Shown: positions 1 to 47,914 of the stretch, piece by piece
Numbering within the stretch: the stretch's first letter is position 1
Layout of the letters: the number at the start of each line of letters is the position of its first letter
Source: Alphaproteobacteria bacterium
GTDB taxonomy: Bacteria > Pseudomonadota > Alphaproteobacteria > Rs-D84
NCBI GenBank assembly: GCA_017554665.1
Contig: JAFZHX010000038.1
Coordinates: forward strand, 1-53,473
Length of the DNA stretch: 53,473 bases
Reading direction: 5' to 3'
The notes under the pieces: generated by a model
Seen by the model: the letters and a program-made list of their open reading frames with translations, nothing else
Told to the model about the DNA's origin: nothing
Databases searched by the model: none
Translations under genes and position numbers: made by a program

Positions 1-112
1 GCTTTGGAGCTGGAGTTGGCGCTGGAACTGTATCCTTTACAACTGGCTTTGGAGCTGGAGTTGGCGCTGGAACTGTATCCTTTACAACTGGCTTTGGAGC
101 TGGAGTTGGCGC
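1..112. repeat. 45-bp tandem repeat, about 2.5 copies; coding, 15-aa unit PAPTPAPKPVVKDTV on the minus strand
   Basis: Positions 1-45 and 46-90 are identical, and 91-112 is a diverged partial copy. The period is a multiple of 3 and lies in frame within the 1..412 CDS. Confidence 0.9.
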
Positions 113-499: not shown

Positions 500-529
500 T
501 TGCACTACAGCCCCAAATTATGATATAAT
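500..529 (+). promoter_or_regulatory. Sigma70-like promoter with extended -10 for the Cys-rich operon
   Basis: TTGCAC (500-505), an 18-nt spacer containing TG at 521-522, then TATAAT (524-529). It lies about 20 nt upstream of the GAGAGA SD and the ATG at 549. Confidence 0.5.
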
Positions 530-548
530 CAGCTAGAACAGAGAGAAT

Positions 549-1409
549 ATGAAAGCACGACTATTATTTTTATCACTAATTATAACGGCCTATCCTGTAT
601 TATCAGATGCCGCGTCCAGTTGTTCACGCGCAAATCTCACAAAATGTTTAGATTCTGCCTGTGCGATTGGTATCTCTTCCAACCCGTCTGCGCGCTGTCA
701 ATACTGTGGTTCGACCAGTGCTGGCACACCTCCTAAAAACGTTATGAAAGCAATATCAGCCGGCGCATCTGCTAAATACAACATATCTGACAAAGATTTA
801 AAAAACGCTCCCAGCGATCCTGGCGAACGTTATGTGTGGGCAACAAAACAATGTATCGCCAAGGTTACAGGCTGCACACCTGACGATGTAACAGACACAT
901 ATGACAAGCTTATTGAACAGTCTTGTACAGCTGCTGGTGTTTCCGCAAAAATGGCAAAGTTGCAAGAAAAAGCAAAAAAGACCCGCACAAAATCCGACTG
1001 CGAATCGGAAATCACAGCTTGTTTAATAGAAGACAAGGCTTGCAGCTCTGATTATAGAAAATGCGAAGCGGATGCAAGCTTTAACAATTTCTTCTCGGCC
1101 TGTGGCGCCCAAGCTGCTGGTTGCGACAACTTTATATCAGAAATACGCGATGAATTAATCGCCGCTCGCGATAGCGCAATTAAGAACGCCGACAGCATAC
1201 TGGCAAAAATCGTTGCTTCATATCAGAACACGCGCGAAAACAAGCTAACCGAAACACTTAACGGTTGCCAAGACAACAAAAAATTCGACACCTGCGTAGA
1301 AACAGTATGTCAAAATAACATGCCAGACAAGTGCAACAGTCAGACAGAAAAAATCTCAGCTGCTCTGTTATGTAAATTCCACAAAACAGCTTGCGCTACT
1401 CTGGAATAA
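549..1409 (+). CDS. Secreted cysteine-rich protein A (286 aa), first gene of a 4-gene operon
   Basis: Signal peptide MKARLLFLSLIITAYPVLSDA. I counted about 20 Cys by eye. Motifs present are KCLDSAC and ACLIEDKACSSDYRKC, which are shared with the paralogs at 1434, 44903 and 47930. Confidence 0.85.
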   Translation: MKARLLFLSLIITAYPVLSDAASSCSRANLTKCLDSACAIGISSNPSARCQYCGSTSAGTPPKNVMKAISAGASAKYNISDKDLKNAPSDPGERYVWATKQCIAKVTGCTPDDVTDTYDKLIEQSCTAAGVSAKMAKLQEKAKKTRTKSDCESEITACLIEDKACSSDYRKCEADASFNNFFSACGAQAAGCDNFISEIRDELIAARDSAIKNADSILAKIVASYQNTRENKLTETLNGCQDNKKFDTCVETVCQNNMPDKCNSQTEKISAALLCKFHKTACATLE

Positions 1410-1433: not shown

Positions 1434-3209
1434 ATGTCAAACGCATCAACAATTTTTAAAAGCAAATTCCTAACATCTATGTTTGGATGCCTGATTGCGT
1501 TATGCACATTATCGGTTTCACTAACAACAGCAAGAGCAGAAGATTATGACATCGCAATAAAGTCTTCTCAATTTGACGAAATATTAGGCGATTCAAACGA
1601 AGACACAACAACTGCAAGCGACAGCGCGCTTGCCGAAAAGATACGCAAACAGCGCGCCGCACTAAATGCCCAATCTGCCAAAGAAGCATCTACAAACAAG
1701 GCAAAATCAAGTGCTGCATCTGGCAAAAACGATTGCGACCAAAAATTACGCGCATGTATGAAGTCAAAATGTGGCGAAGATTACTCTAAATGTTCTGGCG
1801 ACACCGACACAACATGGGGCGACAAAATGGATACATGCCGTCGCGACACAACATGTACAGGTGAAGAATACAGACTATTCACAGCTGAAATCAAAGCCGA
1901 TCGCGACATGAATTCGAAATTATCATCATATACATCTATCATAGATTGCGGTGACAAATACAACGATTGCATAATAAAGGAATGCGGTCAAACATTTACA
2001 AAATGCCTCGGCAAATCAGCAGGCGACAAAGTTGTTCAAAAATGTTCAAAAATCGCCAACCAATGCAAAGAACAAGACAGCGGCCTTGCCTCACGCGCGA
2101 TGGAGGTATTTGCCAACCTGCGCCAAGAAGCAGAAAAATTAATCATACGCGATGAAAAGCGCTTATATGAATTACGCGACAAAATGCGCAACACATGCGA
2201 CCGTTTGGGTGCATTGTTTGACGAACGAACACTTGATTGTGTCTATAGTGTTGAATTATACGCAGGCGAAGACAACACCCTGCTTTCCTCCAAGAAAACA
2301 TATGCAGGTGGCACCTTTAATTGCCACCAAGACTGGTTCGGTGTTGATGTAACCACATTTAAAGAAAACGCATTCCGTCTAACTAAATCTCAAACATCCG
2401 CATCATCTGCAGCTTTGGGTGCAGGTGTTGGCGTTGGCGTTGGCGCATTAACATCTGGCGCACTTGATCGCGCCATAGACAGATCCAAATCTGAACGTGC
2501 ATTAGGCCAAGAACTGTGCGAATCAACTGGCGGCAAGTGGCAAAAAGCAATAAATAAATGTAAATGCGAAAGCACAAAGTCATTTGACGAAGAAACAGGT
2601 TGCCAAACAGACGACAAAAAAACAGAAAAAGAAGAAAATAAAAAATCGCGCGACAAGCAGAAAGAAGATAAAGCTAACGATAAAAACGCAAAGAAAGAAC
2701 TATGCGAACAAGCCGGCAAATGGGTTGGCGCTGTATGTTACTGCAACGATAAAACACATTCTTTTGACGATGTAAATGGTTGCACCGAAAACGCAAACAA
2801 GAAAAAGAGAGCTGACAACAAAGCAGAAAGACAAGAACAAAACGAATTAAACAAACTCAAAAAAAACAGCCAAGCTGAACAAGAGGCGCGTGACAAAAAA
2901 CTGTGCGAACTTAACGGCAAAGGAAAATGGAAGAACGGCACTTGCAAATGCACAACAGAAGGCGAAACTTACGACAAAGGCTCTGGCATTTGCACATCCG
3001 CACACAACACAGAACGTAAAGAAAACACAAAAGAAGATCAAGCTTCTATTGACAGAAAAAAACAATTATGTGATACATATAACGGCAAATGGACAGGCAA
3101 TACATGCGACTGTGGCGTTGGCAAAGACTGGGATGACAAGCTTAATATGTGCAAAAATAAATTTGCTGACATGAAAATAGAAGCGCCTGAAATAAAATTA
3201 TCACTATAA
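1434..3209 (+). CDS. Secreted cysteine-rich modular protein B (591 aa)
   Basis: It starts 24 nt after gene A. It has a signal/anchor sequence ending ARA|ED and the motifs ACMKSKCGEDYSKC and DCIIKECGQTFTKC. A glycine-zipper-like segment ALGAGVGVGVGALTSGAL follows. The C-terminus has four 4-Cys Trp-containing modules separated by K/E-rich linkers. Confidence 0.85.
   Translation: MSNASTIFKSKFLTSMFGCLIALCTLSVSLTTARAEDYDIAIKSSQFDEILGDSNEDTTTASDSALAEKIRKQRAALNAQSAKEASTNKAKSSAASGKNDCDQKLRACMKSKCGEDYSKCSGDTDTTWGDKMDTCRRDTTCTGEEYRLFTAEIKADRDMNSKLSSYTSIIDCGDKYNDCIIKECGQTFTKCLGKSAGDKVVQKCSKIANQCKEQDSGLASRAMEVFANLRQEAEKLIIRDEKRLYELRDKMRNTCDRLGALFDERTLDCVYSVELYAGEDNTLLSSKKTYAGGTFNCHQDWFGVDVTTFKENAFRLTKSQTSASSAALGAGVGVGVGALTSGALDRAIDRSKSERALGQELCESTGGKWQKAINKCKCESTKSFDEETGCQTDDKKTEKEENKKSRDKQKEDKANDKNAKKELCEQAGKWVGAVCYCNDKTHSFDDVNGCTENANKKKRADNKAERQEQNELNKLKKNSQAEQEARDKKLCELNGKGKWKNGTCKCTTEGETYDKGSGICTSAHNTERKENTKEDQASIDRKKQLCDTYNGKWTGNTCDCGVGKDWDDKLNMCKNKFADMKIEAPEIKLSL
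2511..3165 (+). repeat. Four copies of a roughly 30-aa 4-Cys module (C-x6-8-W-x4-6-C-x-C-x8-11-C) with charged linkers, coding
   Basis: The four copies are LCESTGGKWQKAINKCKCESTKSFDEETGC, LCEQAGKWVGAVCYCNDKTHSFDDVNGC, LCELNGKGKWKNGTCKCTTEGETYDKGSGIC and LCDTYNGKWTGNTCDCGVGKDWDDKLNMC. Confidence 0.85.
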
Positions 3210-3262
3210 CTGTCTAAGTAAAAATAGCTTATACACATTTCAAAACACCGCACAATAAGCGC

Positions 3263-3291
3263 TTGCACAAACATCAAAAAAATGCTAAAAT
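3263..3291 (+). promoter_or_regulatory. Possible internal promoter upstream of gene C
   Basis: TTGCAC (3263-3268), a 17-nt spacer with TGC, then TAAAAT (3286-3291). It sits in the 108-nt gap before the GTG start at 3318, which is preceded by AGAGAGA. Confidence 0.4.
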
Positions 3292-3317
3292 CATCTATAA
3301 TAGAGAGAAACTAAATC

Positions 3318-5192
3318 GTGTATCGTTTTTTGAATATTTTTATCGCATTAACATTATTTGCCCTGCCCGCATTCGGCGCTGCATATGCTACTACCTCTAC
3401 AAAAAAAGAAGAACCAGCAAAATCTGAAAATCAAGAATTTATATTCAAAGTCTCTGGTAAATTCATCGGTTACACAGGCTTGGATCCATCGGGGCTTAGT
3501 GTAAAAATCATTTCCCCAAAAAATTGTGTATTTATAGCACACAGGCAACAAATAATGAATCAGCTACCAGGTGCCTTAATTAACGACAGTATCTCATGCC
3601 CTACTGGTACAGCCAGTATTACACTGGAATTCAACATAGACAATAAAGGTAATGTCACTCACAAATACCAGATAAACAAAGCCAGCAAAATGGCCACTAT
3701 CAAGCTGTCCAAAACTAAAAAGAATTATAAGTTATCGGACATTGTATTAGAACCACTAACAGCTAGCTCGAAAGCACTGGAAGCAGCAAAAGCAAACAAA
3801 CCATCAGCGAACAACGCAAAATCAGCAACAACTACTGTCGGTCAAAAACCAAACAGCACAGTAAAACAAGAACAAACAACTAAAGAAAAATCAGGATCAG
3901 ACAAGACAGCAGAAACAGTTGTTCGCAACAATGAAATAGCAGATACAACACTTTTGTTAAATCCTGACGATACTTCTCCTTTCTCTGCTAACAGTGATGC
4001 CGATAATAACAAAGACGAAGACAAAGACACAAAGGTAGCACCTGCTCCTCAGGAAAAACAATCAACAGCTTCAACTGGTGGATATGAAGAAACTGATGCA
4101 GGAACCAAAGCAACATTAGAAACAAACGGTTTAAAAAAGTTTTGCTCGGATGAAGGTTATATAACAACAGACTCTTCTTCTGTCTATGGTATAGTAAAAG
4201 CAAATTGTAAAAAAGATACAAAAAGCGAAATAACATTTGTTTGCTACAAGTACAAAGCCGTCGCAATACCAAAACAAGCAATTAGCAAACACTTTGCAAA
4301 CTATTGTTTTAAAAAAGAAACAAATTCTGTAAAGTTTGAAACAGCAAATCGACCAAGCACTCATAGCAAAGGGAAAAAATGTCCAAATGTTACACCAGCT
4401 TGGAAAAAACAAAACAACGCTAATGCCGGCGCATGCGACCCACAAACTGGCGAACTATATATAACAGAATGTAAAGCTGATTATGTCGGCACAACTCGCG
4501 GTATCAGCAAAGACGGATACAAGTCCTGTAATTCAACTTCAAACACAACAGGAAACAATGATAACGAATTGAAAAAATTGTGCACAAAAGGCGGTGCTGG
4601 CTCTTGGGAAAACGATAACTGTATCTGCAAAAATACAACACATTCTTTTGACTCTGAGAAAGGCTGTGTCCAAGACAACGAAAAAACAGAAGAATTAAAG
4701 AAAAAATGTACCACTCCAAACACTTGGAATGAAAAACTGAAACAGTGTGAGTGCGAAAACAAAAAACAAAAATTTGACGAAAAAGCTGGAAAATGTGTTG
4801 ATACAGACGCAGAAACAGAAACAAACAACAATGACGGATCAGAAGCATTGTGTACAAAGGACGGTGCTGGCTCTTGGGCAGACGGCAAATGCACATGCAC
4901 AGACGAAACACATTCTTTCGACTCCAAGAAAGGCTGTATCCTGGACAAAAAGAAAGCAAAAGCTAAAAAAACAGAAGACTTAAAAAACAAGTGCAAAGCT
5001 CCAAACACTTGGAACGAAAAACTGAAAAAATGTAAGTGCGAAAACAAAAAACAAGAATTTGACGAAGAAGCTGGAACTTGCGTTGATGTAGCTGCTGATT
5101 ATAAAAACGCAGTTTCAAAACTGGAACAGCTTAAACAACAGCTGGATACAAAATTGGAAGAATTAAATAAAGAAGATGGCGAAAACGAATAA
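3318..5192 (+). CDS. Secreted cysteine-rich modular protein C (624 aa, GTG start)
   Basis: Signal peptide MYRFLNIFIALTLFALPAFGAAYA. It has a Ser/Thr/Lys/Asp-rich spacer, a Cys-rich middle region, and four copies of the 4-Cys W module also seen in gene B. The tail is coiled-coil-like (LEQLKQQLDTKLEELNKE). Confidence 0.85.
   Translation: MYRFLNIFIALTLFALPAFGAAYATTSTKKEEPAKSENQEFIFKVSGKFIGYTGLDPSGLSVKIISPKNCVFIAHRQQIMNQLPGALINDSISCPTGTASITLEFNIDNKGNVTHKYQINKASKMATIKLSKTKKNYKLSDIVLEPLTASSKALEAAKANKPSANNAKSATTTVGQKPNSTVKQEQTTKEKSGSDKTAETVVRNNEIADTTLLLNPDDTSPFSANSDADNNKDEDKDTKVAPAPQEKQSTASTGGYEETDAGTKATLETNGLKKFCSDEGYITTDSSSVYGIVKANCKKDTKSEITFVCYKYKAVAIPKQAISKHFANYCFKKETNSVKFETANRPSTHSKGKKCPNVTPAWKKQNNANAGACDPQTGELYITECKADYVGTTRGISKDGYKSCNSTSNTTGNNDNELKKLCTKGGAGSWENDNCICKNTTHSFDSEKGCVQDNEKTEELKKKCTTPNTWNEKLKQCECENKKQKFDEKAGKCVDTDAETETNNNDGSEALCTKDGAGSWADGKCTCTDETHSFDSKKGCILDKKKAKAKKTEDLKNKCKAPNTWNEKLKKCKCENKKQEFDEEAGTCVDVAADYKNAVSKLEQLKQQLDTKLEELNKEDGENE
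4575..5090 (+). repeat. Internal tandem duplication of about 270-285 bp, each unit encoding two 4-Cys modules
   Basis: ggtgctggctcttggg occurs at 4593 and 4863, and ccaaacacttggaa at 4716 and 5001. At protein level, LCTKGGAGSWENDNCICKNTTHSFDSEKGC plus KCTTPNTWNEKLKQCECENKKQKFDEKAGKC is duplicated as LCTKDGAGSWADGKCTCTDETHSFDSKKGC plus KCKAPNTWNEKLKKCKCENKKQEFDEEAGTC. Confidence 0.9.
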
Positions 5193-5204: not shown

Positions 5205-7097
5205 ATGAAAAAACTGTTTATAACATCTTTACTAACAATATTAACTTTACCTGCATTTGCAGAAAATGCGGCTAACCCTTTTGATAATGCTACAACAAAA
5301 GAAGAAGCTTGGACAATCTTTGAAGATAAAGCTTCGGCTATTTTAAAAGAATCTAAAGCAAAGTTGAAAAATTCTGAATATTCCAAATTGGAAAAACAGT
5401 ATAAAAATATGCTTGAAGACAAAAACGAAAAAACAAGCAAAAAAGATAAAAAGAAAAAAGACGAAGAACAAAATAAAAAGAAGTTATCGCCAGAAGAACA
5501 AGAACAAAAAATCTCGGAACTGCGCGACAATGCCGAAGCCATGAAGGAAAAAGAACAGTCCTTTGAAAACAAAGCGTTGGGTGCAGCAGCTATTGGCACA
5601 ACTGGTATGGGCGCGATGGAGCTAGCATCCGGACTTGCAGAAAAAACTGCAGACGAAGATGCAGAACGTTCAATGAAGGCTTATCTTGCTACATTTACTT
5701 GCAAATATGGCGACAAACGCGTCAAAGGCGGCACAATGAATGTAGAACTGCCTGGCGGAAACGAACTGATTAACCTGTACAGCGAATATGTAACATTAGC
5801 AAATGATTTGAAAGTTCGTAAAAACGCACTGGGCATGTTGCCAGGTATTGAGTCAGAATCTATCTTGGACAAATCTACAAGTGGATTGTATGACGATGTA
5901 AATATTGGTAAAACAGGTGGCGCATATACATCTTTGGCTCGCGCACTGATGGACCCAACTGGCGAAGATGCACAAAAATGGAATGCAGAAAAACAAGCTT
6001 CTGCTGACAAGGTGAAAAAAGGCGCAACAGCTGCTGGCCTTGGCGCAATTGGTGGCTTGATTGGAAACTTGGCTATCAATGGAAAATCTCCAAAAGAACG
6101 CTCGGAAGAAATAAATAAAAAATATGAACCTTTGAAAAAAGAATTCACAGAAGTTCAAGAAGAAATAGAAGAAAAACACAAAGAAAAACTCACCAAAGAA
6201 ACTTGCGCCAAATATGACGCAGTCGGTGAAAATATCGAAAGCAGTTGCTCTTGCTCTGATGAAAACAGTTATTGGGATTCTAACAATATACAATGCACAT
6301 CTTGTGAAGAAGATCAGATTGTTAACGAAGACAAAACAAGCTGCATACCAAAACCTGGACCAAGTTGCGAATTACAACCCGGCAATTTAACAGATGAAAA
6401 TTGCGCATGTATAAACGAAGCTGAAAAAGATGAAAATAATGCTTGTGTTTGTAATTTAACTGGCACATTTAATGCAAACTCATGCGAATGCAACGAACAT
6501 TCAACTAAGAATGGTAACGCATGTGCATGCGATTCGAATTACAAGCCTGACCCAAAAGCTCCTACTACTTGCATTCCAGAAGTAGCCGAAGTAGTAGCTG
6601 CTGAAGAACCAATACAAACATTCTCTTTCCCTTCGGATACATTCTTTGATGTTGGCAAAGCTACACTAAAAGACGATGCAGGTAGCCTGCTTAAAAAAAT
6701 AACAGATGTGATAAAACAAAAATATCCAGATAAAGCTGCTGAAATACTTGCATCATCATGCTTTACAATCAACGGATATGCAGACAGAACCGGCAATTAC
6801 AAAAAAAATCAAACCTTATCTGAAAGCCGCGCTCACTCGGTTGCAAAAGCATTGGTTACAGCTTCTGGTGGCAAGATAACAAACAATAGCTATGTAGTAT
6901 CTGGCAAAGGCGATACAGAATGCACAAGAACAGATTATCCAAAAAAAGCAGACCTCGCAAAATGTCGTCGTGTTGACATAGTGCTAAACTCAGGTTCTTG
7001 TTCCGCCCCTGTCGCAGAATCAGGCGATGGTGCAGCCAATAAAGCAAACACAATAGAAACAGCCACAAAAGTAGTGACAGGCATAATAAAAAAATAA
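5205..7097 (+). CDS. Secreted modular protein D (630 aa): K/E-rich coiled region, glycine-zipper segments, CxC-rich module, C-terminal OmpA-type peptidoglycan-binding domain
   Basis: It starts 12 nt after gene C. Signal peptide MKKLFITSLLTILTLPAFA. Glycine-zipper-like segments are ALGAAAIGTTGMGAMELASGLA and ATAAGLGAIGGLIGNLAI. CxC motifs occur repeatedly (CSC, CAC, CVC, CEC, CAC). The C-terminus carries the OmpA_C hallmarks FFDVGKATL, INGYADRTGNYKKNQTLSESRAHSVAKAL, SGKGD and CRRVDIVL. Confidence 0.85.
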   Translation: MKKLFITSLLTILTLPAFAENAANPFDNATTKEEAWTIFEDKASAILKESKAKLKNSEYSKLEKQYKNMLEDKNEKTSKKDKKKKDEEQNKKKLSPEEQEQKISELRDNAEAMKEKEQSFENKALGAAAIGTTGMGAMELASGLAEKTADEDAERSMKAYLATFTCKYGDKRVKGGTMNVELPGGNELINLYSEYVTLANDLKVRKNALGMLPGIESESILDKSTSGLYDDVNIGKTGGAYTSLARALMDPTGEDAQKWNAEKQASADKVKKGATAAGLGAIGGLIGNLAINGKSPKERSEEINKKYEPLKKEFTEVQEEIEEKHKEKLTKETCAKYDAVGENIESSCSCSDENSYWDSNNIQCTSCEEDQIVNEDKTSCIPKPGPSCELQPGNLTDENCACINEAEKDENNACVCNLTGTFNANSCECNEHSTKNGNACACDSNYKPDPKAPTTCIPEVAEVVAAEEPIQTFSFPSDTFFDVGKATLKDDAGSLLKKITDVIKQKYPDKAAEILASSCFTINGYADRTGNYKKNQTLSESRAHSVAKALVTASGGKITNNSYVVSGKGDTECTRTDYPKKADLAKCRRVDIVLNSGSCSAPVAESGDGAANKANTIETATKVVTGIIKK

Positions 7098-7127
7098 AAA
7101 AATCCCCAATTTGGGGATTTTTATTTT
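7098..7127. terminator. Bidirectional rho-independent terminator (operon A-D / grpE)
   Basis: aaaaaatcccc-aattt-ggggatttttatttt. An A-run and a T-run flank a GC stem, and the element lies between convergent genes. Confidence 0.8.
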
Positions 7128-15376: not shown

Positions 15377-15407
15377 CAAATCCCCCAAACGGGGGATTTA
15401 TTTTTTT
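15377..15407. terminator. Bidirectional rho-independent terminator
   Basis: aaatccccc-aaac-gggggatttattttttt, located between convergent genes. Confidence 0.8.
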
Positions 15408-18400
15408 AGAACTGGCTACGGAATTTAAACATACCTGTTTGTGAAGTATATGCTTCGTGTACGTCCAAATCATACATTACGCTAAATTCTAAGCCCTTGT
15501 ATTCAGCAGTCAAGCCAATACCAACTTCACCACCGAACGCAGAGATACTTTCGCCATCAACATTATATGATGCACCAATACCTGGGATAGAAACAGTAGC
15601 GCGTTCACCATCTCTGATAACATCGTATGTCAAAGCTGCACGCATTTCAGGACGGAACTTTAACATATCTTCTGTTTCAACATAGAACGAATATCTCAAT
15701 CCGATTGTGTTTGTCAGGAAATTTGTATTCTGTTCTGCAATTGTGTTAACACCATTATCATATTCGTCTTGTACGATATGCAAATAGCGGAAGCCAATTT
15801 CAGGTGTAAGACCTGTTGCAAAATCATAACCCAACTTCATTTGTGCACCAAAAGCAGTTGAATCATATGTACTTTCGACAACAACACCAAATGGATCTGC
15901 ATTTTCTGTATGTTCAGCCATTGTATATGCCAATGTTGTGTTCAAGAACCATTTGCTTGGCTTATACTGACCATACAAGAACAATGTTTGACTATCGATT
16001 TCTGTATCACGTGTTCCAGAAGAAACTTCTGTATTATTGCATGCAAAACCTGCACCCAATGTATAAACACCATCAATCAGAGTATCAGCACCCAAGGCAA
16101 ATCCGCGTGTGTCGCCACTAAATGCGCTGCCAGATTTTGATTTGTTATACAAACCTTGTGCCCAGAAGCCATTTTCCTGTGGTTTATCACCACCTGCACG
16201 ACCAACATGTGTTGTTGCGCCTGCCATACGACCAGATGTCAAAGTCAACACTTGGTTATTAACTGTAGAAGCAACAGATGTTGTAACAGGTTTATCTTCT
16301 GGATTCAATTTTGCTGTTTCTTGTTCGATTTTTGCAATCGCGTCAGCATCATCAGAGTTCAACAACTTTTGTGCAGCCAAAGAAACCATTTGAATATTTC
16401 TATTGGTTGAATTTGCCAAACTATTGATTGCGCCAGCAGCTTGTTGTGAAATACCTGTATCTGCAGTCAATGTTTCAACAGACTTCATTTCGATAACAAC
16501 ACCATCTTTACCGTTGTTTGTTACAGTATATGCTTTACCAGCATCAATTGTGATATTATTATCACTGTTAAACATTTTGTAAGTACCAGCAGAGCCAACA
16601 TTCAAGTTGATAGTTCCATTACCTGAAACATTACCAAACAATTTAGCAAATGTTCCACTGTCTGAAACTCTGGTATTTTCGTTCTGTTCACCTCTATCAA
16701 TATAAGAAGTATTTGCTGCAGTCAAAACATCAGCATAAACAGTACCGTCCAAAACAATTTCTGATTGGATAATACTTGATGCACCCATATTCAGCACAGC
16801 ACCATTTTCCAAAGTGAACTTACCATCACCTGTAATACCACCTGTCAAAGACATTGTGCCACCAGATACAGTTATTGTACCCAAGTTGTGGATATCATTA
16901 TAATGTTTGCCAGCCTTGTTGTTCACAAAAGTATTTGTACCACTAAAGTCCATAACACCCTTGACATCGTTATAGATAGCACCACCGTTTACACCCGCAA
17001 TATTATCTTCAAATGTGTTCGAACCTGTAAAGAATACTTTACCATCACCAGTTGAAGCAGTTGGAGTAGAACCACCACCATAGTTAGGTGCAGAACCGTT
17101 AAATATTGCACCACCATTAACTTTTGCAACATTTGAAGTAAATTCAGTAGATTCTATTTCTACTTTACCTGCATAAACATTTGCAATTGCGCCACCAACT
17201 GAATAAGAAATATTTTCATCAAATTCAGACTTAATTATTTTCAATGTTTCATCTGCATAATGACGCGCTGCAATCGCACCACCACGAACACCAGAAACAT
17301 TGTCTTCAAAGTGAGCATTTGTCAATGTTGCGCTAGCATATTGTCCCAAATGAATAGCACCACCACCGTCAGCTTCTACAATATCTTCTGCTTTAAAAAC
17401 ATTTTTGTAAGCAACCGCAGCAGTATTTCCTTCGAACCAAACATTTGTCAGCTCGGAAACTGCATTGTTAAAGATACCCAAAGCACCAGCATCAGTCAAA
17501 GCATGGTTGTTTTTAAATACAGTGTATTCAATATCCATACCTTCGTTTGTGTATCTGGAACCATATATAGCACCACCAGCATAAGCTACGTTATTTTCAA
17601 AGGCTACTTTATCGAATTTTGTACCATTGATTTCTAACTTACCATAGTCAAAAATCGCACCCGCATAACCGCCGTCTGACCAAGCATCCTTACTTGCAAT
17701 GTTGTTTTTGAAGTTACCGCCATTGATGCTCAACACGCCTTCATTAAATATAGCACCACCATCAACAACAGATTTGTTTCCAACAAAGTCAGCACCAACA
17801 ATATTCAAAGAACCCGCATTATAAATTGCACCACCTTCTATTGCTGCGATATTGTCTTTGTATTCACCACCAACAATCTTCATAGAAGCTTTGTTATCTT
17901 TCTTATCCAATTCACCATTGTTATAGATAGCACCGCCCCTGTTAGCTTTGTTTGAAGTAAAATTAGATTTTTCTATATACACAGAATTTTTTTCATTCAA
18001 ACTGTCATAAAATGTTGAATAGATAGCACCACCATGTTCTTTTGCAACATTAGATGTAAAGTTTGTTTTAATAATATCTAAGTCAGCTGCACTATTATCA
18101 CCATCTGCTGCACCACGCATAGCAATCGCGCCACCATGATACATAGATTCATTTTCTTCAAATGTAGCATTTTCTATCAATACAACCGATTCGGAACCTA
18201 ATGCAATAGCACCGCCACCCATTTGTTCTGTATTGTTTTCAAAATCAGTCTGTGCTTTATTTTTTCTAAATATGGCACTATCCACATTTAAATATCCAAA
18301 ATTAGCAATTGCACCACCGTCAAAACGTACAACATTGTTTTCAAATAAAACATCCTTGCCTACATTCAATGTGGACTTATCACCTTTGCTAGTTGTAGAA

Positions 18401-18678
18401 AAAATACCAACATCAGCCTTGTTATTTGTAAATTCAGCTCCAGTGTTTAGAGTTAAAGTATTTCCAGCCAAAATGTAAAAGACTGAATCCAAACCACCGA
18501 ACGCTGTTGTAGATGTATCTACCCAAGAAAAAGAATCTTCTGCACCATAAATAGTATCTGCAGAAATTACTTGCTCTGACTGTTTTTGATATTCGTCTGC
18601 AAAAGCAGGCACAACCGCAAAAACCGGCAAGATACTGCAAACTTTTACCAAGTCTGCCAAATGTTTTATATTGGACAT
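15406..18678 (-). CDS. Autotransporter with Pmp-type (polymorphic membrane protein) GGA[IL]/FxxN repeats (1090 aa)
   Basis: AAGGAG SD and a signal peptide ending PAFADEY. There are more than 15 paired motifs, for example FTSNVAKEHGGAIY, FTSNKANRGGAIY, FVGNKSVVDGGAIF, FENNVAYAGGAIY, FEDNVSGVRGGAIA and FEDNIAGVNGGAIY. The C-terminus is a beta-barrel with alternating aromatic residues, ending FKFRSQF. Confidence 0.85.
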   Translation of the reverse strand: MSNIKHLADLVKVCSILPVFAVVPAFADEYQKQSEQVISADTIYGAEDSFSWVDTSTTAFGGLDSVFYILAGNTLTLNTGAEFTNNKADVGIFSTTSKGDKSTLNVGKDVLFENNVVRFDGGAIANFGYLNVDSAIFRKNKAQTDFENNTEQMGGGAIALGSESVVLIENATFEENESMYHGGAIAMRGAADGDNSAADLDIIKTNFTSNVAKEHGGAIYSTFYDSLNEKNSVYIEKSNFTSNKANRGGAIYNNGELDKKDNKASMKIVGGEYKDNIAAIEGGAIYNAGSLNIVGADFVGNKSVVDGGAIFNEGVLSINGGNFKNNIASKDAWSDGGYAGAIFDYGKLEINGTKFDKVAFENNVAYAGGAIYGSRYTNEGMDIEYTVFKNNHALTDAGALGIFNNAVSELTNVWFEGNTAAVAYKNVFKAEDIVEADGGGAIHLGQYASATLTNAHFEDNVSGVRGGAIAARHYADETLKIIKSEFDENISYSVGGAIANVYAGKVEIESTEFTSNVAKVNGGAIFNGSAPNYGGGSTPTASTGDGKVFFTGSNTFEDNIAGVNGGAIYNDVKGVMDFSGTNTFVNNKAGKHYNDIHNLGTITVSGGTMSLTGGITGDGKFTLENGAVLNMGASSIIQSEIVLDGTVYADVLTAANTSYIDRGEQNENTRVSDSGTFAKLFGNVSGNGTINLNVGSAGTYKMFNSDNNITIDAGKAYTVTNNGKDGVVIEMKSVETLTADTGISQQAAGAINSLANSTNRNIQMVSLAAQKLLNSDDADAIAKIEQETAKLNPEDKPVTTSVASTVNNQVLTLTSGRMAGATTHVGRAGGDKPQENGFWAQGLYNKSKSGSAFSGDTRGFALGADTLIDGVYTLGAGFACNNTEVSSGTRDTEIDSQTLFLYGQYKPSKWFLNTTLAYTMAEHTENADPFGVVVESTYDSTAFGAQMKLGYDFATGLTPEIGFRYLHIVQDEYDNGVNTIAEQNTNFLTNTIGLRYSFYVETEDMLKFRPEMRAALTYDVIRDGERATVSIPGIGASYNVDGESISAFGGEVGIGLTAEYKGLEFSVMYDLDVHEAYTSQTGMFKFRSQF

Positions 18679-18845: not shown

Positions 18846-18877
18846 AAAAAAAATGTCCCGTTTGGGACATTTTTTTA
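18846..18877 (-). terminator. Rho-independent terminator after the giant autotransporter
   Basis: aaaaaaatgtccc-gttt-gggacattttttt. Confidence 0.75.
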
Positions 18878-21800
18878 AAAACGATACGAACCTGATACTT
18901 TTATATTATGCAATTGTACATTTTCATTATACTGGTATCTATAATCTACACCAACTTGCATTCCGCGTGCGGACAAGAACTCAACACCACCGCCAATATT
19001 TGCCCACAAAGGATTTATTTCGATATCGTATTCAGAATACTTTGTTGTTGTTGCGAATTTATATTCTACAGAATTATTTATACCCAGCACATCATATTCA
19101 GCACCAATACTTGCATAAGGACGAATTTGGAACGAAGCTGATGGATAAATTCTTTTCTGTGCTGTCAAAGAATATCCCGCAGTAGCAACCGAATATCCGT
19201 CTAAATTCATCTCCATATATTCACTACCTGCTGCATCTTCTGTAATGCTCATACCAGAGTTGTATCCAACACGACCATATACATTACCAACAAAGTATTG
19301 ATTTAACAGATTATGCATCCAACCAAATTCAGACATCAAGCTAACCGCCGCACCAGAACCTTCTATTGTATCAACAAAAGACTGATCACGTTGTACATTT
19401 ACCACATGTATATCAGCAAACAAATTACCATACACACGATTATCTTCATTAAATGTCTTCATAAAATATCCACCCAACCCGATATTTGTATCAGAAACTT
19501 GGCTATCGATATTTCCATACTGTGTAACTGTGCCATAACTTAAATCAACCTCTTTGTCCAAGAGAGATGTAGAGTGTGTGATATGACCTGTAAAACCTAA
19601 AATCAAGTCTTCAGATTCTTGCCAGTCAAAACCACCAGAAATACTAAATCTATCACCGTCTATATGATTACCAGCAATTGTATTTTGATAGAACATGCCG
19701 AAATCTACATCCATCCAAGACTTTTTCAAGCTACGTCCACGATTCCATATAAATTCATCGAACATTCTATCTTCAAAAGAACGGAATACTGTATGTTCAT
19801 TCAAAGCCATAGTTGTAGCAATCTGTTCTATTTCATAAGCTTCAAACAAGCTACTAAATCTTGTCAAAGCTTCTCCATTACGTTCTACGATATAGCTTTC
19901 CATACGATTATACAGTTCCGAAGCAACCTGTGATAAGTTTGTTCCCTTGAACACAGTTGGTATAACTTCGATAGGAGTTCTGTTATAGAACTTTTTAGCT
20001 TCTAAACGACCCGCTATCATATTATCCAAAGCGTCTGCTGCTGCAGATTCAGAAGTAGTACTTTTTTGCTCACGACTAACAATCGGATGAATATCGAACA
20101 CCTGTACAGGGCCACCGAACTGATTATCAAACACGATATACACACTATCTGCCTGACCATCGTTATTTGTATCACGAACAGTCGCATACGCAGGCAAGCC
20201 ATCTGGGTTATTTTCATCCAAATCATTAAAGTAAGGAACACAAACAGAACCATCTGCATTACAGAACTTAATATTCATATTACGGATATTTGTATCAAAG
20301 TTATAAACCCCGCCTTCTGCATACAACAACCAAACAGCCTTATTTGCATCAACTATATCAAACAAGCTAACACCAAACTGTCCATCTTCTAATACCGGAG
20401 AATCAACGCTACCCAAATCACCTATACTTAAGTCGGCAACAAATTTACCACCAACATTAATCAAAGCACTTGCGTCCGAAGTATGTACAATCTTGCCGTA
20501 ACTATCATCATCATTCAGACTAATGCTTCCCCAATAATTAACATCTGTTGTATTCATACCAGAGCCTGCCGCATAAGGCAAAACCGCAACATTAAGAGCA
20601 CTGTTTTCATTAAAGGTATAGTTATTACCAATAAACATTTTTTCTAAACCAATAAAATCAACATTACCCGAAACATCACCGCCTACTACAACATTCATCC
20701 AGTTATTTACAGGACTTGCTGCAATTCGCAAATCAGATGCAACAATATCGCCGTCAATTTGAACGTCACTAGAGTTGATTACCAAAGAACCACTTTGCGC
20801 AATACCACCAACATGAACATTACCCAAATTCATAACATAGTCAGCATTATTAATGATAACCGAAGCATCAGCTACCTCCTGCCCTAAAACACCATTAGAA
20901 TAGAACATACCAGCAGTACTTAAACCTGTACTTGTAAAGATTATGTTACCACCATTTACAGCAACAGAATCTACCGCAATTTCATTTGCCCCTGAATCAA
21001 GTTCCAGCAATCCTGCATCGTTAACAATGGCACCAGACAAAGAGATTCCATTATCAGCGACAATATTTGTATAACCGCTATTTAACAAATCGTTTGCTAC
21101 AAATTTATTTGCAACATCAAATTCTACAAAAGTACTTCCTGCAATATTTAAATCACCTGTCAAATTAACATCCGAAGCAATTTTATACAGCATATCGCCA
21201 GTTTCTGCGAACATATTTCCTGTAACAATCAAATTATCTACAACCAGCTCATCCATATTTAGCAGGTTCAAGTTTCCAGAAACACCACCCTGTGAAACAT
21301 TTCCTGCTACATACAAATCATTATTAGCAAGAGACATACTTGGCGCATAAAGATTTACATTGCCACCATAAACGCTTATTCCCTGTGCGCTAATTGTATC
21401 TGCATACAAATCCATATTACCTGAATTATTCACAATAGCCCCTGCTACATCCAATTTATCAATAGCAGTACCAGAATCTACATAAGCTATTTTAAAGTTA
21501 CCACTATTCGTTATAGAGTTCACAGACACATTGTCAAAAACCAGTACATTTACAGTTCCATTGACCGCATTAGTAATATTTTGCAATGTAACACTTTGAG
21601 TATTTAGACTAAGCACTCCAGAATTGCTTATCGAACCAGCGATATCAATTGTATTTTCTGCGCTTAACACCAAAGTTCCAGCACTAGTAATATCGCTTGA
21701 TACAGAAAGATCTTTTTCAGACTCTACATACAAAGTCTTTGCTGTTTTTACATCAATTCCGTCCAAGAAAACATCATAGTTCGCATTGTCTGACTTTAAT

Positions 21801-24004: not shown

Positions 24005-24042
24005 TTTTTCTTCTTTTATTCCATTCCTAAATATGGTTATAA

Positions 24043-25377
<1,335 letters not shown>

Positions 25378-35038: not shown

Positions 35039-36118
35039 ATGAAAAAAGCATTATTTTTCACAACATTATCTCTTTGTGTTGCATTGGCACAAAATGCCAG
35101 CGCATGCACAGGGATAACACTAAAATCCAAAGACAACTCTACTGTTGTTGCGCGCACAATGGATTGGTCTGGCGCAGAAATGAACAATCTGTACACAATC
35201 GTACCACGCGGTTACACTCAGCAGTCTTTATTGCCAGACGGCACAATGGACGGTCTGACTTTTATATCACTGTATGGTTACGCAGGTATATCTGTTGACC
35301 AACCCGAATTTGTAGTCGATGGCACAAACGAAGCAGGACTATCTGCTGCCCTATTCTACTTTCCAAACTATGGCAAATACCAACAATATAACGAAAAAAG
35401 CAAAGATATATCACTGGCGGACTTTCAAGTCGTATCATGGATATTATCTCGTTTTTCAAGCATCGACCAAGTCAAAGCAGCTATCAACGATGTACGCATA
35501 ATAAATATAGATCCAACAGCTTCGACTGTTCATTGGAGAATTACAGAACCATCAGGTCGCCAAGTAGTCCTAGAAATTGTTGACGGCAAACCAAACTTTT
35601 ACGAAAACGAAATCGGAGTTCTAACAAACTCTCCTGGTTTTCCATGGCACATGACCAACCTTAACAACTATGTCAATCTACATCCAGGCACTGCAGGACC
35701 AACTCCTTTTGGTCCAATAACACTGCGAGCATTTGGTTCAGGTTCTGGCCTGCGCGGATTGCCTGGCGACTTTACACCACCATCTCGTTTTGTTCGTGCA
35801 GCGTTTTTGAAAACATTTGCGCTAGAACAGCCAACCGGAGAAAAATCAGTTGAACAGGCATTTCACATTTTAAACAATGTAGATGTTCCATCAGGTGTTC
35901 AATTTGCAGTTGGCAAATCTCCAACAGACATGCCTGCTGCGACTCAATGGACTGTCGCAACAAACTTAAAGAACAAAATTATTTATTATCATACGATGTA
36001 CAACAGAACGATTCGCAGTATCGACATGAGTAAAATCGATTTTGCAAAAATAAACTTCCAATATCACCCTCTGGATTCTATAAAACAGCAAACGATATTT
36101 TCTGTAAGAATAGACTAA
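35039..36118 (+). CDS. Secreted Ntn hydrolase of the choloylglycine hydrolase / penicillin V acylase family
   Basis: AGGGGGAA SD. The signal peptide ends NASA|CTGITLKS, which exposes the nucleophile Cys. The family core is conserved (RTMDW, NEAGL, LTNSP). Confidence 0.85.
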   Translation: MKKALFFTTLSLCVALAQNASACTGITLKSKDNSTVVARTMDWSGAEMNNLYTIVPRGYTQQSLLPDGTMDGLTFISLYGYAGISVDQPEFVVDGTNEAGLSAALFYFPNYGKYQQYNEKSKDISLADFQVVSWILSRFSSIDQVKAAINDVRIINIDPTASTVHWRITEPSGRQVVLEIVDGKPNFYENEIGVLTNSPGFPWHMTNLNNYVNLHPGTAGPTPFGPITLRAFGSGSGLRGLPGDFTPPSRFVRAAFLKTFALEQPTGEKSVEQAFHILNNVDVPSGVQFAVGKSPTDMPAATQWTVATNLKNKIIYYHTMYNRTIRSIDMSKIDFAKINFQYHPLDSIKQQTIFSVRID

Positions 36119-47900: not shown

Positions 47901-47914
47901 TTTTTTCCACACAT
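44903..47914 (-). CDS. Secreted cysteine-rich protein F (1003 aa) with a long Ala/Gly-rich hydrophobic region
   Basis: It has a signal peptide and a basic A/R/G/P/T/K tract (VSARAATNAKTA..AAGKTGGRTT). Motifs are GCMDSFC, ECMQTTAGCGNDFSKC and ECLSSEDRCGADYSQC. An Ala/Gly/Ser/Thr hydrophobic stretch of about 130 aa precedes a Cys-rich C-terminus. Confidence 0.85.
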   Translation of the reverse strand: MCGKNISIVTLALCTVINGAFCAPARRGNVQRGNAAVSAAPKKGGVSARAATNAKTASQAAAPAAGKTGGRTTAVRGGGVPAASKVPTVSARAASTQKVVSTGTKVAGAAENVVVSDDCKQIYNGCMDSFCVIENFSGGRCVCSDKYRSFDKLLAEIEEIDQEAFKIANLGEKTIEAALSGETEVNFTSEVSANRISIKQAWSDGEIGAQLKRKAHEVCAERITQCGDKLSFMSSVYDGAINSDCAAYNNALKKQLSDAKAKKRQVEGALRTVAFDNAKNANKFDLGQCTTAFKECMQTTAGCGNDFSKCASVSAISATNSREKDKKQTTYKIQGAVSNIEISASTYDILVAKKPLCEAVFKQCTKVADQVFDVFVKDVAPQLKLAETIAEDNMRKDCIGNVSDCFRNACKDHMDPNDPDGSYDMCLSRPETMLNVCKVQLDACGINSSDPVKARESSIWDYVLARLAAMKVDACTNELKECLSSEDRCGADYSQCVGLSTEQIIRMCPYDKLTGCQSVHDKKLTSNEVYDNLNKMVQGIILNIDNEMLATCEAALETATKRVCGENMDCASLIDLNTFGTTSLEYKICEYQLYQDGFVLTDHCFAEQSMIPDKDLGRVENSVSGELGPVTPYAVLIDVPIYWESISVGVDGNFEGLDDYMQKLEDRKLFMTDKQKERLNNEFSVFKKSLDSVMDSIESDVTVAACMEGRKVSGLNTEKVARFPNLTKQTRTIMAAKLLQKAKSNYYAKYDSLTERSLQDYIKISERQAEIAGENFKDRHRELARQSCVNLAEGSAMPKSTTPPASVGGGIFLGIILALAITAVTVCTFGVGGAASLASVGGLGAAQAAATSTAAAAATAAATASFAATTGGFAASVAASFATAAAATAATSASVVAAGISAAVIGSVGAAVSAGLATGIAVANSAASEAFEYAETQKLRGEYKVEYWNYKEDITTVFNPTDLTCEKCVVYSHCKKTKAPMFGEQYCETWDESSSPQCTTLQM

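Follow-up and report, generated by a model that had tools for sequence, protein, structure and literature searches.

EGF-like domains, such as cbEGF of fibrillin, EGF2 of factor Xa and I-EGF of integrin beta, are 30–40 residues long and comprise two consecutive beta-hairpins, the second strand bearing a CxC, after which come an aromatic residue and the final cysteine. They contain six cysteines and occur in tandem arrays within extracellular proteins. The fibronectin type I (finger) module has four cysteines, in the order C...aromatic...CxC...C, and small beta-sheets. Single alpha-helix (SAH) domains of the ER/K type, as in myosin VI/X and caldesmon, are stiff spacers. Here we analyze a stretch of 53,473 nucleotides (the window) from Candidatus Enterousia, an uncultured gut bacterium with a small genome, that contains the gene cluster A-B-(C)-D. 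The cluster can be likened to chlamydial OmcA/OmcB, as a Cys-rich secreted envelope cluster in a reduced-genome diderm, but as a functional analogy only, no sequence relationship between OmcA/OmcB and A–D being detected. Coordinates are those of the window, and all features except a terminator-like hairpin are on the + strand.

The repeat unit and its predicted fold

A regular expression applied to the translated + strand ORFs found four units of the form C-x5-7-W-x4-6-C-x-C-x11-13-C in each of the proteins encoded by gene B (1434..3209; 591 aa, the database form beginning at Met16) and gene C (3318..5192; 624 aa, GTG start). This confirms the claim of the sequence-only reading that two adjacent proteins carry four copies each, and all eight fall within the span it had given, 2511-5090. 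Its written core motif also held, but not the last loop of x8-11 in its heading, which measures x11-13; its linker length of 15-40 aa comes close to the measured 13–40 aa (Cys4-to-Cys1 spacers: B, 33, 40 and 25 aa; C, 13, 18 and 18 aa). Residue shuffles (n = 2000) gave a mean of 0.017 pattern matches in B and 0.0015 in C, against the four observed in each; the four-unit repeat is real and far above chance. A unit HMM, trained in part on the B and C units themselves, found domains in B (4) and C (4) only when run against all six frames of the window. Alignment of the eight units shows no variation at the first three cysteines, at the Trp or at the Asp of [FYW]-D; Cys4 is present in 8/8 by the regular expression but does not occupy one single alignment column.

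The units of B, each supported by the regular expression, the unit HMM and the structural model, are CESTGGKWQKAINKCKCESTKSFDEETGC (unit 1, 2517..2603, aa 362-390; i-E 3.5e-12 and a four-strand model), CEQAGKWVGAVCYCNDKTHSFDDVNGC (unit 2, 2703..2783, aa 424-450), CELNGKGKWKNGTCKCTTEGETYDKGSGIC (unit 3, 2904..2993, aa 491-520) and CDTYNGKWTGNTCDCGVGKDWDDKLNMC (unit 4, 3069..3152, aa 546-573). Those of C, supported by the regular expression and the unit HMM, are CTKGGAGSWENDNCICKNTTHSFDSEKGC (unit 1, 4581..4667, aa 422-450), CTTPNTWNEKLKQCECENKKQKFDEKAGKC (unit 2, 4707..4796, aa 464-493), CTKDGAGSWADGKCTCTDETHSFDSKKGC (unit 3, 4851..4937, aa 512-540) and CKAPNTWNEKLKKCKCENKKQEFDEEAGTC (unit 4, 4992..5081, aa 559-588). 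Units 1+2 of C match units 3+4 as a tandem duplication of a two-unit block (4540..5098), with nucleotide identities of 73% between 4540-4692 and 4810-4962 and 83% between 4681-4813 and 4966-5098, and the C array is the product of a recent two-unit duplication. B unit 2 and C unit 1 share 77% nucleotide identity over 47 nt.

An AlphaFold model of the single unit, with C unit 1 as its first sequence, has a pLDDT of 93.8 and shows a helix (2-9) followed by strands at 11-14, 17-20, 25-28 and 32-35; the mini-domain is thus recurrent and predicted to fold alone. The four-strand pattern returns in 4/4 units of the full-length B model, each with Cys1 within the helix before it, Cys2 in the second strand, Cys3 in the same strand or just beyond it and Cys4 within the fourth strand, a layout consistent across the four copies. 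Cys1 would accordingly sit on the last turns of the alpha-helix ahead of the unit, the CxC within or at the end of strand two in the first beta-hairpin, and Cys4 on the last strand of the second hairpin, with the near-invariant Trp and the [FYW]-D predicted to fill a small core. We infer two disulfides per unit, putatively paired 1-2/3-4 as an analogy to EGF would suggest.

Architecture of B, C and D

Over 725 homologs of B were found; no functional name is attached to any of them, and those that are named read 'hypothetical protein'. B itself consists of a signal peptide, a conserved Cys-rich helical N-domain (~65% identity across the group, with 15 invariant cysteines), a Gly-zipper-like stretch and a variable tail that carries the four units. 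The Gly-zipper-like segment (2370..2459, ~aa 313-342, SASSAALGAGVGVGVGALTSGAL) marks the boundary between N-domain and tail; its Gly columns are invariant in homolog alignments, its pLDDT in the model is <50, and its only match, a weak one, is to GvpT. A predicted helix (2460..2525, aa 343-364; H328-349 of the model in P0001 numbering), in a region with block-mean pLDDT of ~79–95, leads into unit 1. Further modeled helices lie between units 1 and 2 (2613..2708, aa 394-425; a charged helix in a spacer that is 67% charged and contains no Pro or Gly), units 2 and 3 (2793..2909, aa 454-492; charged, 39 helical residues) and units 3 and 4 (3030..3077, aa 533-548).

The sequence-only reading had pictured flexible K/E linkers in a beads-on-a-string layout. 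For B this picture did not survive: the spacers are 44–67% charged, lack Pro and Gly and are modeled as continuous helices (109 residues in total) that extend into Cys1 of the following unit with pLDDT >90, although AlphaFold usually scores charged helices high and such values are no proof of a stable single helix. Tail pLDDT is mostly 85–95, dipping to ~49–73 between unit 3 and the next helix, and with a pTM of just 0.34 for full-length B the overall rod geometry is a prediction and not established. The B spacers resemble SAH domains in being 25–40 aa long, charged, free of Pro and Gly and predicted as isolated helices; they differ in that they are short, capped by units that would be disulfide-bonded, and part of a secreted bacterial protein. 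Median spacer length among B homologs is 33 aa, with 50% charged residues and 1.4% Pro+Gly, compared with 11 aa, 26% and 11% in other unit-bearing proteins. Beyond the Gly zipper the B tail can be as short as 42 or as long as 653 aa, and this wide variation disfavors a role as a fixed-length ruler.

Protein C is lineage-specific, with 6 homologs only. Its signal peptide is followed by a two-Cys N-terminal region, an S/T/N/K-rich low-complexity region, a 10-Cys region, the four units and a C-terminal amphipathic helix; alignment with P0155 from residue 1 and GAGAGAGA upstream both support the GTG start and the signal peptide. No outer-membrane translocator or anchor is recognizable in B or C.

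The 630-aa product of gene D (5205..7097) combines a signal peptide with charged helices, two segments that resemble Gly zippers and a CxC ladder, and carries at its C-terminus an OmpA-like peptidoglycan-binding domain (6642..6923, aa 480-573; Pfam PF00691, E = 1.2e-12, 48.5 bits against a cut-off of 27.2). In its OmpA-like end and Gly-zipper-like stretches D is like the YiaD Gly-zipper/OmpA family, its best NCBIfam match (E = 3.5e-15 over the OmpA part), but it scores 56 bits against that model's cut-off of 175, and YiaD lacks the long charged helices and CxC ladder of D; B and C have no OmpA domain. The ladder (6204..6572, aa 334-456, by regular expression) contains 16 cysteines, with six CxC and one CxxC. 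These CxC pairs had been noted before as a related run; the pairs are there, but we reject their identity with the B/C unit, because the ladder lacks the Trp and the spacers and has no unit-HMM match even at E<=10. It has no Pfam match either.

Distribution and kinship of the unit

A adjoins B in 80/80 related loci, and D comes after B in most of them. The gene A product (549..1409; 286 aa, 20 Cys) contains no units and has no Pfam match, and shares with B the motif C-x6-C-x4-6-C-x6-C (E = 0.004). Within these loci the units are accessory modules: B has 0–3 of them and any at all in 24/80, ORFs in the C slot have 1–6, and D has units in 4/58. Searching 1.84 billion representative proteins with a profile of the unit returned 356 carriers only. 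Many begin with signal-peptide-like or lipoprotein-like N-termini, and carriers, where identified, are secreted proteins or lipoproteins, among them a cluster of Patescibacteria proteins named 'Ig-like domain-containing protein' with a Big_1 domain upstream of the units. A eukaryote-like origin, raised in the sequence-only reading, is not borne out, the full-length matches checked being bacterial; the one eukaryotic match looked up, a moth mucin-like protein, has its best stretch in the C-terminal half of the unit only. The unit would be a modest new domain family, sparse and bacterial.

The unit does not map to any curated domain model searched: Pfam and NCBIfam gave no match to B or C, and none of the eight window units significantly matches EGF, TNFR or other Cys-rich models. 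It is an unnamed module in the libraries searched, at most remotely EGF-like. The fibronectin type I module resembles it in its four cysteines and their order, but has a first loop ~12 residues longer; the FN1 pattern matches neither A–D nor 120 B homologs, and no FN1 structure is among the Foldseek matches listed. Pfam DUF5874 (PF19202) matches the densely packed C...W-N-G...CxC repeats of P0135 (E = 1e-24), a protein retrieved by the unit profile. It has no match in A, B, C or D, is absent among the matches listed (25 of 30 families) for 65 aligned units, and we found no mention of it in the literature.

In an EGF-like domain it is the C-terminal two-thirds that the ~30-residue unit resembles, the two having in common the pair of hairpins, the CxC, aromatic and final Cys, and the tandem arrangement. 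That the unit truly belongs to the EGF-like superfamily as a divergent member, with the C1-C3 disulfide lost and perhaps acquired from a eukaryotic host, nevertheless strikes us as quite improbable. Part of the earlier remark that the spacing recalls EGF stands, since some homologous units match EGF_Teneurin (7e-5), cEGF (1e-4), EGF_3, EGF_2 and I-EGF_1, some carry CxCxxGY...C and reach 1e-4 to 1e-5 with EGF models, and 11/120 B homologs have units that fit the EGF_2-type signature CxCxx[GP][FYW]x4-8C. Fibrillin cbEGF is the best PDB sequence match of the unit profile (E = 0.18), and EGF domains head the Foldseek list, integrin I-EGF with a local rmsd of 1.9–2.0 Å over 22–24 columns. The likeness is weak, however: at E<=10, 0/8 window units match an EGF model, comparison of the unit profile with a canonical EGF alignment in hhalign gives 5.5% probability over 10 columns, and all Foldseek E-values are >1. 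The unit has four cysteines and not six, an N-terminal helix bearing Cys1 in place of the EGF N-terminal loop, a near-invariant Trp in loop 1 and a longer last loop (11–13 residues). Checkable carriers are bacterial apart from the partial insect match, and the GC content across the region (0.37–0.41) agrees with that of the remaining window. Membership of the EGF family is not demonstrable. Four invariant cysteines within ~30 residues, and a weak zf-UBR match from one unit (E = 0.06), would also suit a zinc knuckle or ribbon with no disulfides, but we regard metal binding as very improbable indeed. The signal peptides on all cluster carriers imply exposure to the oxidizing periplasm, the C...CxC...C spacing lacks paired CxxC knuckles, neither His nor extra ligands are conserved, and the closest structural neighbors by Foldseek are disulfide-rich extracellular domains.

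A proposed role for the unit in the envelope

Taking the model and the exported setting together, we think it rather likely that the unit is a ~30-residue extracytoplasmic two-disulfide mini-domain that forms, with charged helices, a disulfide-stapled stalk or spacer in the envelope. Each B unit would cap one helix and begin the next, the units alternating with highly charged, Pro/Gly-free helices of the ER/K type, and the B tail would therefore be a semi-rigid rod and not a string, in which the model gives ~16 nm of helix and four beads. A, B, C and D, all four with signal-peptide-like N-termini in the translated ORFs, would be exported by Sec and oxidized in the periplasm; no Dsb or VKOR gene was found within the window. 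For B and C we infer the following location and function. A conserved module of A, the B N-domain and D would be held in the envelope, with D binding peptidoglycan through its OmpA domain and the Gly-zipper-like segments of B and D possibly lying in the outer membrane. The variable tails of B and the C-slot protein would be length-adjustable stalks or spacers, keeping something at a distance or offering a binding surface.

The stalk may also be adhesive, and this overlaps with a further reading in which B and C are on the cell surface, the units are the binding part of an adhesin (for glycan, mucin or a partner cell wall) and the helices give reach only; here function would be in the beads and location outside. 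We hold it to be unlikely, though less so than kinship with EGF. Such an adhesin would suit the partner-dependent way of life presumed for Enterousia: genomes of the order Rs-D84, to which it belongs, are described as reduced and without standard sugar, amino acid and peptide transporters, with metabolites possibly acquired from a partner organism (PMC12306168). The tail varies strongly in copy number and sequence between species while the N-domain is conserved about as well as housekeeping proteins, the unit sits at the far C-terminal end of the Patescibacteria proteins, whose Big_1 domain is of the invasin type, and also occurs in proteins with lipoprotein-like N-termini, and CBM14 appears in the Foldseek list (E = 3.6). 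Small Cys-rich domains that bind carbohydrate commonly have conserved aromatics of the exposed type (W, F/Y/W), but in a domain of 30 residues such aromatics are probably core and not binding site. B and C have no evident route across the outer membrane, and the analogous Cys-rich ladder of D directly precedes the peptidoglycan-binding domain and is therefore probably periplasmic.

Transcription and surroundings of the cluster

A putative promoter and ribosome-binding site for gene A were read by eye at 500..546, with TTGCAC at 500-505, a spacer of 18 nt, an extended -10 element TGaTATAAT at 521-529 and GAGAGA at 541-546 as the putative ribosome-binding site; the consensus scan did not list this promoter because its -35 element matches at 3/6 positions only. 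At the other end, a GC-rich, terminator-like hairpin (7098..7122; 11 pairs, A/T runs on both sides) lies between the stop codons of D and the convergent grpE, and is probably a two-way terminator that closes the A–D transcription unit. An autotransporter with Chlamydia PMP repeats is encoded in the same window.

Organization of the A-D gene cluster

Within the first 7.1 kb of the window, genes A (549-1409, 286 aa), B (1434-3209, 591 aa), C (3318-5192, 624 aa) and D (5205-7097, 630 aa) follow one another on the + strand with intergenic gaps of 24, 108 and 12 nt. The stop codon of D is separated from that of the convergent grpE by a strong hairpin (7098-7122) with A/T runs on either side. The four translations all begin with a signal-peptide-like sequence of the basic-hydrophobic-AxA type, as expected of exported proteins. 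C starts with GTG, and its public call (P0125, 500 aa) begins at the internal Met125 (region 3318-3689) and so loses the signal peptide and ~100 further residues. GAGAGAGA stands upstream of the GTG at 3318, and an alignment with a C homolog, P0155, starts at residue 1 of the long form, which was therefore used here.

Searches of Pfam and NCBIfam with A-D, the eight isolated repeat units described below, the cysteine-rich CxC ladder of D and the 10-Cys region of C gave a single match and none in B or C: an OmpA-like peptidoglycan-binding domain (PF00691) in D alone, at aa 480-573, whose score of 48.5 bits exceeds the gathering cut-off of 27.2. Full-length B returned no structural match for its N-terminal domain when compared with the PDB using Foldseek, and a search for Dsb genes within the window found none. 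We also considered C as a fragment or relative of D, and rejected this as the BLAST similarity between them was cysteine-rich noise only.

A four-cysteine unit is repeated in B and C

The sequence-only reading had proposed that B and C each carry four copies of a ~30-aa mini-domain, and a pattern search finds exactly four in each, all on the + strand: at nt 2517-2603, 2703-2783, 2904-2993 and 3069-3152 in B and at nt 4581-4667, 4707-4796, 4851-4937 and 4992-5081 in C. Residue shuffles yield far fewer matches, 0.017 for B and 0.0015 for C against 4 observed in each, and an HMM of the unit run over all six frames of the window gives matches in B and C only. The measured pattern is C-x5-7-W-x4-6-C-x-C-x11-13-C, in which the core arrangement first described is retained, with a last loop that slightly exceeds the x8-11 originally given. 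Alignment of the eight window units reveals invariant columns for the first three cysteines, the tryptophan and the aspartate of [FYW]-D; the fourth cysteine is present in 8/8 units, though the alignment does not put it in one column. A related run of motifs had also been ascribed to D. The ladder of D (aa 334-456) does contain six CxC pairs but has no tryptophan, no spacers and no unit-HMM match, and at the level of sequence its resemblance to the unit is only loose. We rejected D as a carrier of the B/C unit, given that the HMM is silent on this protein.

The predicted fold of the unit and its likeness to EGF domains

AlphaFold2 modeling of C unit 1, for which 65 distinct units were aligned, gave a confident fold (pLDDT 93.8), in which a helix (residues 2-9) holds Cys1, a hairpin (11-14/17-20) carries the CxC at positions 18 and 20, and a second hairpin (25-28/32-35) carries Cys4 at position 33. 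In full-length B, modeled from 112 aligned sequences (mean pLDDT 75, pTM 0.34), this four-strand pattern recurs in all four units with the cysteines on the same elements in every copy, and the predicted placement of the cysteines is consistent between the two models. The tail of B is mostly modeled at a pLDDT of ~85-95, but falls to ~49-73 after unit 3, ahead of the helix that follows.

The spacing of the unit had been said to recall EGF-like or other small disulfide knots. None of the eight window units significantly matches EGF, TNFR, granulin or TIL models, even at E ≤ 10, and together with the Pfam and NCBIfam results this agrees with the earlier view that the unit has no clean counterpart among known domains. 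An EGF-like domain has six conserved cysteines, which pair in three disulfides (C1-C3, C2-C4 and C5-C6), whereas the unit has exactly four in every copy, and the four-Cys pattern is seen in 512 distinct units of the homologs. The EGF signatures C-x-C-x2-[GP]-[FYW]-x4-8-C (EGF_2-type) and C-x-C-x5-G-x2-C have 0 matches in A-D. Of 120 B homologs, 11 contain the EGF_2-type pattern, and homolog units containing CxCxxGYxLxGxxC match EGF_Teneurin (7e-5), cEGF (1e-4) and others, all below threshold. The best PDB sequence match of the unit profile is a fibrillin cbEGF (E = 0.18), and when hhalign compared this profile with a manually entered canonical EGF alignment, the probability was 5.5%, over 10 columns around the CxC.

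The EGF-like order of two sheets, a major two-stranded one followed by a minor two-stranded one at the C terminus, is also predicted for the unit, and is repeated four times in the model of B. Foldseek of the unit against the PDB, with a 36-residue query that gives little statistical power, produced no significant hit (best E = 1.1, TM 0.3-0.45), but its list is led by EGF domains, those of factor Xa (EGF2), LDLR, integrin (I-EGF), PvRipr and agrin/LRP4; the integrin I-EGF superposes with an rmsd of ~2 Å over 22-24 columns. With full-length B the factor Xa EGF pair ranks first, again at a non-significant E of 1.6, and a search of the viral structure library BFVD with the unit returned nothing. 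In our reading, the unit has the architecture that EGF-like domains show in their C-terminal part, two hairpins with the order CxC, aromatic, Cys. It departs from that family in the defining traits of cysteine number, profile match and signature, and should be treated as an unnamed relative or a convergent form.

The fibronectin type I pattern, C-x6-8-[LFY]-x5-[FYW]-x-[RK]-x8-10-C-x-C-x6-9-C, has no match in A-D or in 120 B homologs. DUF5874 (PF19202) matches none of the window proteins and only P0135, a distant unit carrier, and no relevant paper emerged from literature searches on DUF5874 or on EGF-like surface repeats of bacteria, Patescibacteria among them. Taken together, the unit is a real and small module, putatively of the disulfide type, absent from the libraries and papers searched, loosely EGF-like, and part of predicted helical stalks in a conserved envelope gene cluster that lacks annotation and belongs to a little-known gut lineage. 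If the model holds, it adds a compact, confidently predicted two-disulfide fold to the short list of EGF-like modules in bacteria.

Predicted charged helices between the units of B

The units had been pictured as beads on a string, joined by flexible charged linkers. For B this picture is not supported by the predicted spacers, its K/E-rich segments at aa 343-364, 394-425, 454-492 and 533-548, which contain 0 Pro and 0 Gly, are 44-67% charged and are modeled as continuous helices with a pLDDT of >90, although such values for charged helices do not prove a stable single helix. These helices comprise 109 residues in total (~16 nm) and, in the model, lead straight into Cys1 of the next unit. Because the K/E segments are predicted to be continuous helices without Pro or Gly, the layout of B would be better described as beads on a rod. 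By analogy we infer that they resemble ER/K-type single α-helices, a class of long E/K/R-rich helices that have neither helix breakers nor a hydrophobic seam; the B spacers fit this description in their charge, their lack of Pro and Gly and their predicted helicity, and the trend extends across B homologs, whose spacers have a median length of 33 aa, with 50% charged residues and 1.4% Pro+Gly. The corresponding values in other unit-bearing proteins are 11 aa, 26% and 11%, and the spacers of C are shorter, at 13-18 aa. If the model holds, the construction is unusual: disulfide-bonded caps alternate with charged single helices in a stiff stalk of a length that duplication can change.

The units are accessory modules of a conserved cluster

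Within C, units 1+2 and 3+4 are related by tandem duplication of a 270-285-nt block with 73-83% nucleotide identity, and unit 2 of B is 77% identical to unit 1 of C over 47 nt. B itself has >725 homologs, the few source-named ones being called hypothetical protein. Their N-terminal ~340 residues are ~65% identical, contain 15 invariant cysteines and close with an invariant Gly-rich stretch, and the tail that follows is hypervariable (42-653 aa). Several B homologs end in similar short motifs (…KLSL, …TLSL, …NFSL or …QFNLGS; the end of B is at window 3153-3206), and a similar end on tails so variable hints, from sequence, at a conserved docking tip on a tether of variable length.

A scan for B relatives with one genome per species gave 214 stretches, of which 80 loci were kept; at least 214 species-level genomes encode such a relative. 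Those inspected, 80 in number, are from Candidatus Enterousia and related gut Alphaproteobacteria, which are mostly uncultured and have genomes of ~1 Mb or less. Nearly all kept loci are labeled Candidatus Enterousia or uncultured (Alpha)proteobacteria. A and B are adjacent in 80/80 and D follows B in most, whereas a clear C homolog is present in only 3/80, and the databases contain 6 homologs of C. Unit carriage is patchy: A never has units, B has 1-3 in 24/80 loci, open reading frames between B and D have 1-6 in ~11 loci, and D has units in 4 of 58. On account of this distribution, the units are accessory modules that move and multiply within the A-B-D cluster and do not belong to its conserved core. 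The unit marks this conserved A, B, D cluster, whose homologs all lack annotation. Homologs of D elsewhere can be much longer, with open reading frames of up to ~1180 aa (in one related locus, L030), and a 950-aa homolog in the closed 958,618-bp genome OZ007020.1 (L058, 9102-11954) has a CarboxypepD_reg-like β-sandwich upstream of the OmpA domain.

Rs-D84 is the uncultured order that includes Enterousia; its members have reduced genomes (mostly <1 Mb for Enterousia) without a TCA cycle or respiratory chains and may obtain metabolites from a partner organism (PMC12306168). For cell interaction in Enterousia the literature points only to "hypothetical membrane-bound proteins" (PMC12306168).

Searching 1.84 billion representative proteins with the unit profile recovered only 356 carriers at E ≤ 1e-3 and 68 at E ≤ 1e-10. 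With a domain model of the unit, several hundred protein clusters would gain an annotation. Among the listed matches, up to ~15 tandem units were counted by pattern. Those inspected have a consensus near C-E-x-[ST]-G-G-x-W-x3-5-C-x-C-P-x-G-x-x-W-[DN]-x5-C, and many start with signal-peptide-like or lipoprotein-like N termini. Few carriers match Pfam over their units; P0135 matches DUF11 and DUF5874. The taxonomic names for this wider family rest on two cluster look-ups, one of which is a Patescibacteria Ig-like cluster (P0123/P0274/P0275) with a Big_1/invasin domain followed by C-terminal tandem units. Patescibacteria likewise have reduced genomes and are regarded as dependent on partner cells. 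A homolog search with a double-unit alignment gave 54 candidates, none of them significant. A eukaryote-like origin, raised as a possibility at first, is not supported because the one eukaryotic match looked up, a moth mucin-2-like protein, covers no more than the C-terminal half of the unit in its best-scoring stretch. The result is of use and comes as a moderate surprise, but overturns nothing.

Proposed disulfides, location and function

The four cysteines of each unit would form two disulfides in the periplasm, putatively Cys1-Cys2 and Cys3-Cys4 by analogy with C2-C4 and C5-C6 of EGF. Natural units that have lost a cysteine pair could reveal the pairing, but almost all units keep four cysteines, and the only variant seen, with three, is uninformative. 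These disulfides would staple each helix end to the hairpin pair and stiffen the junctions, so that the B tail could serve as a stalk or spacer whose length is altered by unit duplication.

A common architecture is seen in B and D, each of which has a Gly-zipper-like stretch, a charged segment and cysteine modules, in this order. The stretches are at 2370-2459 in B (AALGAGVGVGVGALTSGAL; pLDDT <50 in the B model) and at aa ~125-145 and ~275-297 in D (GATAAGLGAIGGLIGNLAING; ~nt 5577-5639 and 6027-6095), and that of B and the second of D are followed by a charged helix-like segment and then by cysteine-rich modules. In D this putative common order leads to the OmpA domain, which would suggest a bridge from the outer membrane to peptidoglycan. 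A structural stalk is the reading that we consider probable. That the units instead form a ligand-binding surface adhesin seems rather unlikely. The B and C tails may stay in the periplasm or reach the surface: the strong variability of the tail and the Ig-like Patescibacteria carriers speak for an exposed and possibly adhesive role, whereas the lack of any visible translocator and the context of D favor a periplasmic one. A broader extension of the stalk reading is more speculative, and we regard it as doubtful: that the unit is a disulfide-stapled helix cap (C-x-x-x-G-x-W...CxC...[FYW]-D...C) founding an undescribed family and, combined with ER/K helices, builds length-adjustable rigid stalks in the envelopes of bacteria with reduced genomes and a dependence on partners (Enterousia/Rs-D84 and Patescibacteria), where these stalks would mediate cell-to-cell attachment or set its distance.

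The N-terminal domain of B (1434-2459) has an odd number of invariant cysteines, 15, and D (5205-7097) has 21 cysteines in total. Because both counts are odd, each may keep one unpaired cysteine for an intermolecular disulfide, for example between B and D.

Other genes of note in the window

Two adjacent paralogs of ~1000 aa (44903-47914 and 47930-50935, both on the - strand) are 41% identical over 875 aligned positions, cysteine-rich and without a Pfam match. They share C-x6-C-x4-6-C-G-x-D-[FY]-[ST]-x-C with A and the B N-terminal domain (E = 0.002 against B), have an N-terminal VSARAA-type stretch as in many B homologs, and contain a Gly/Ala-rich stretch near the C terminus. Cysteine-rich secreted proteins appear to form an expanded family in this small genome.

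A 1090-aa autotransporter with Chlamydia polymorphic-membrane-protein repeats (15406-18678, -) and an adjoining 1728-aa open reading frame with no Pfam match (18875-24061, -) are further large surface-protein candidates. At the start of the window (1-112), a perfect 45-nt tandem repeat (2.5 copies, 100% identity) lies inside a divergent gene (2-412, -) that runs off the window; we read its product as having a hydrophobic anchor at the N terminus and, after it, proline-rich repeats of the PAPTPAPKPVVKDTV type, and it has no Pfam match. The gene at 35039-36118 (+) encodes a choloylglycine hydrolase family protein of the bile-salt hydrolase type (E = 3.6e-68), consistent with a gut habitat.
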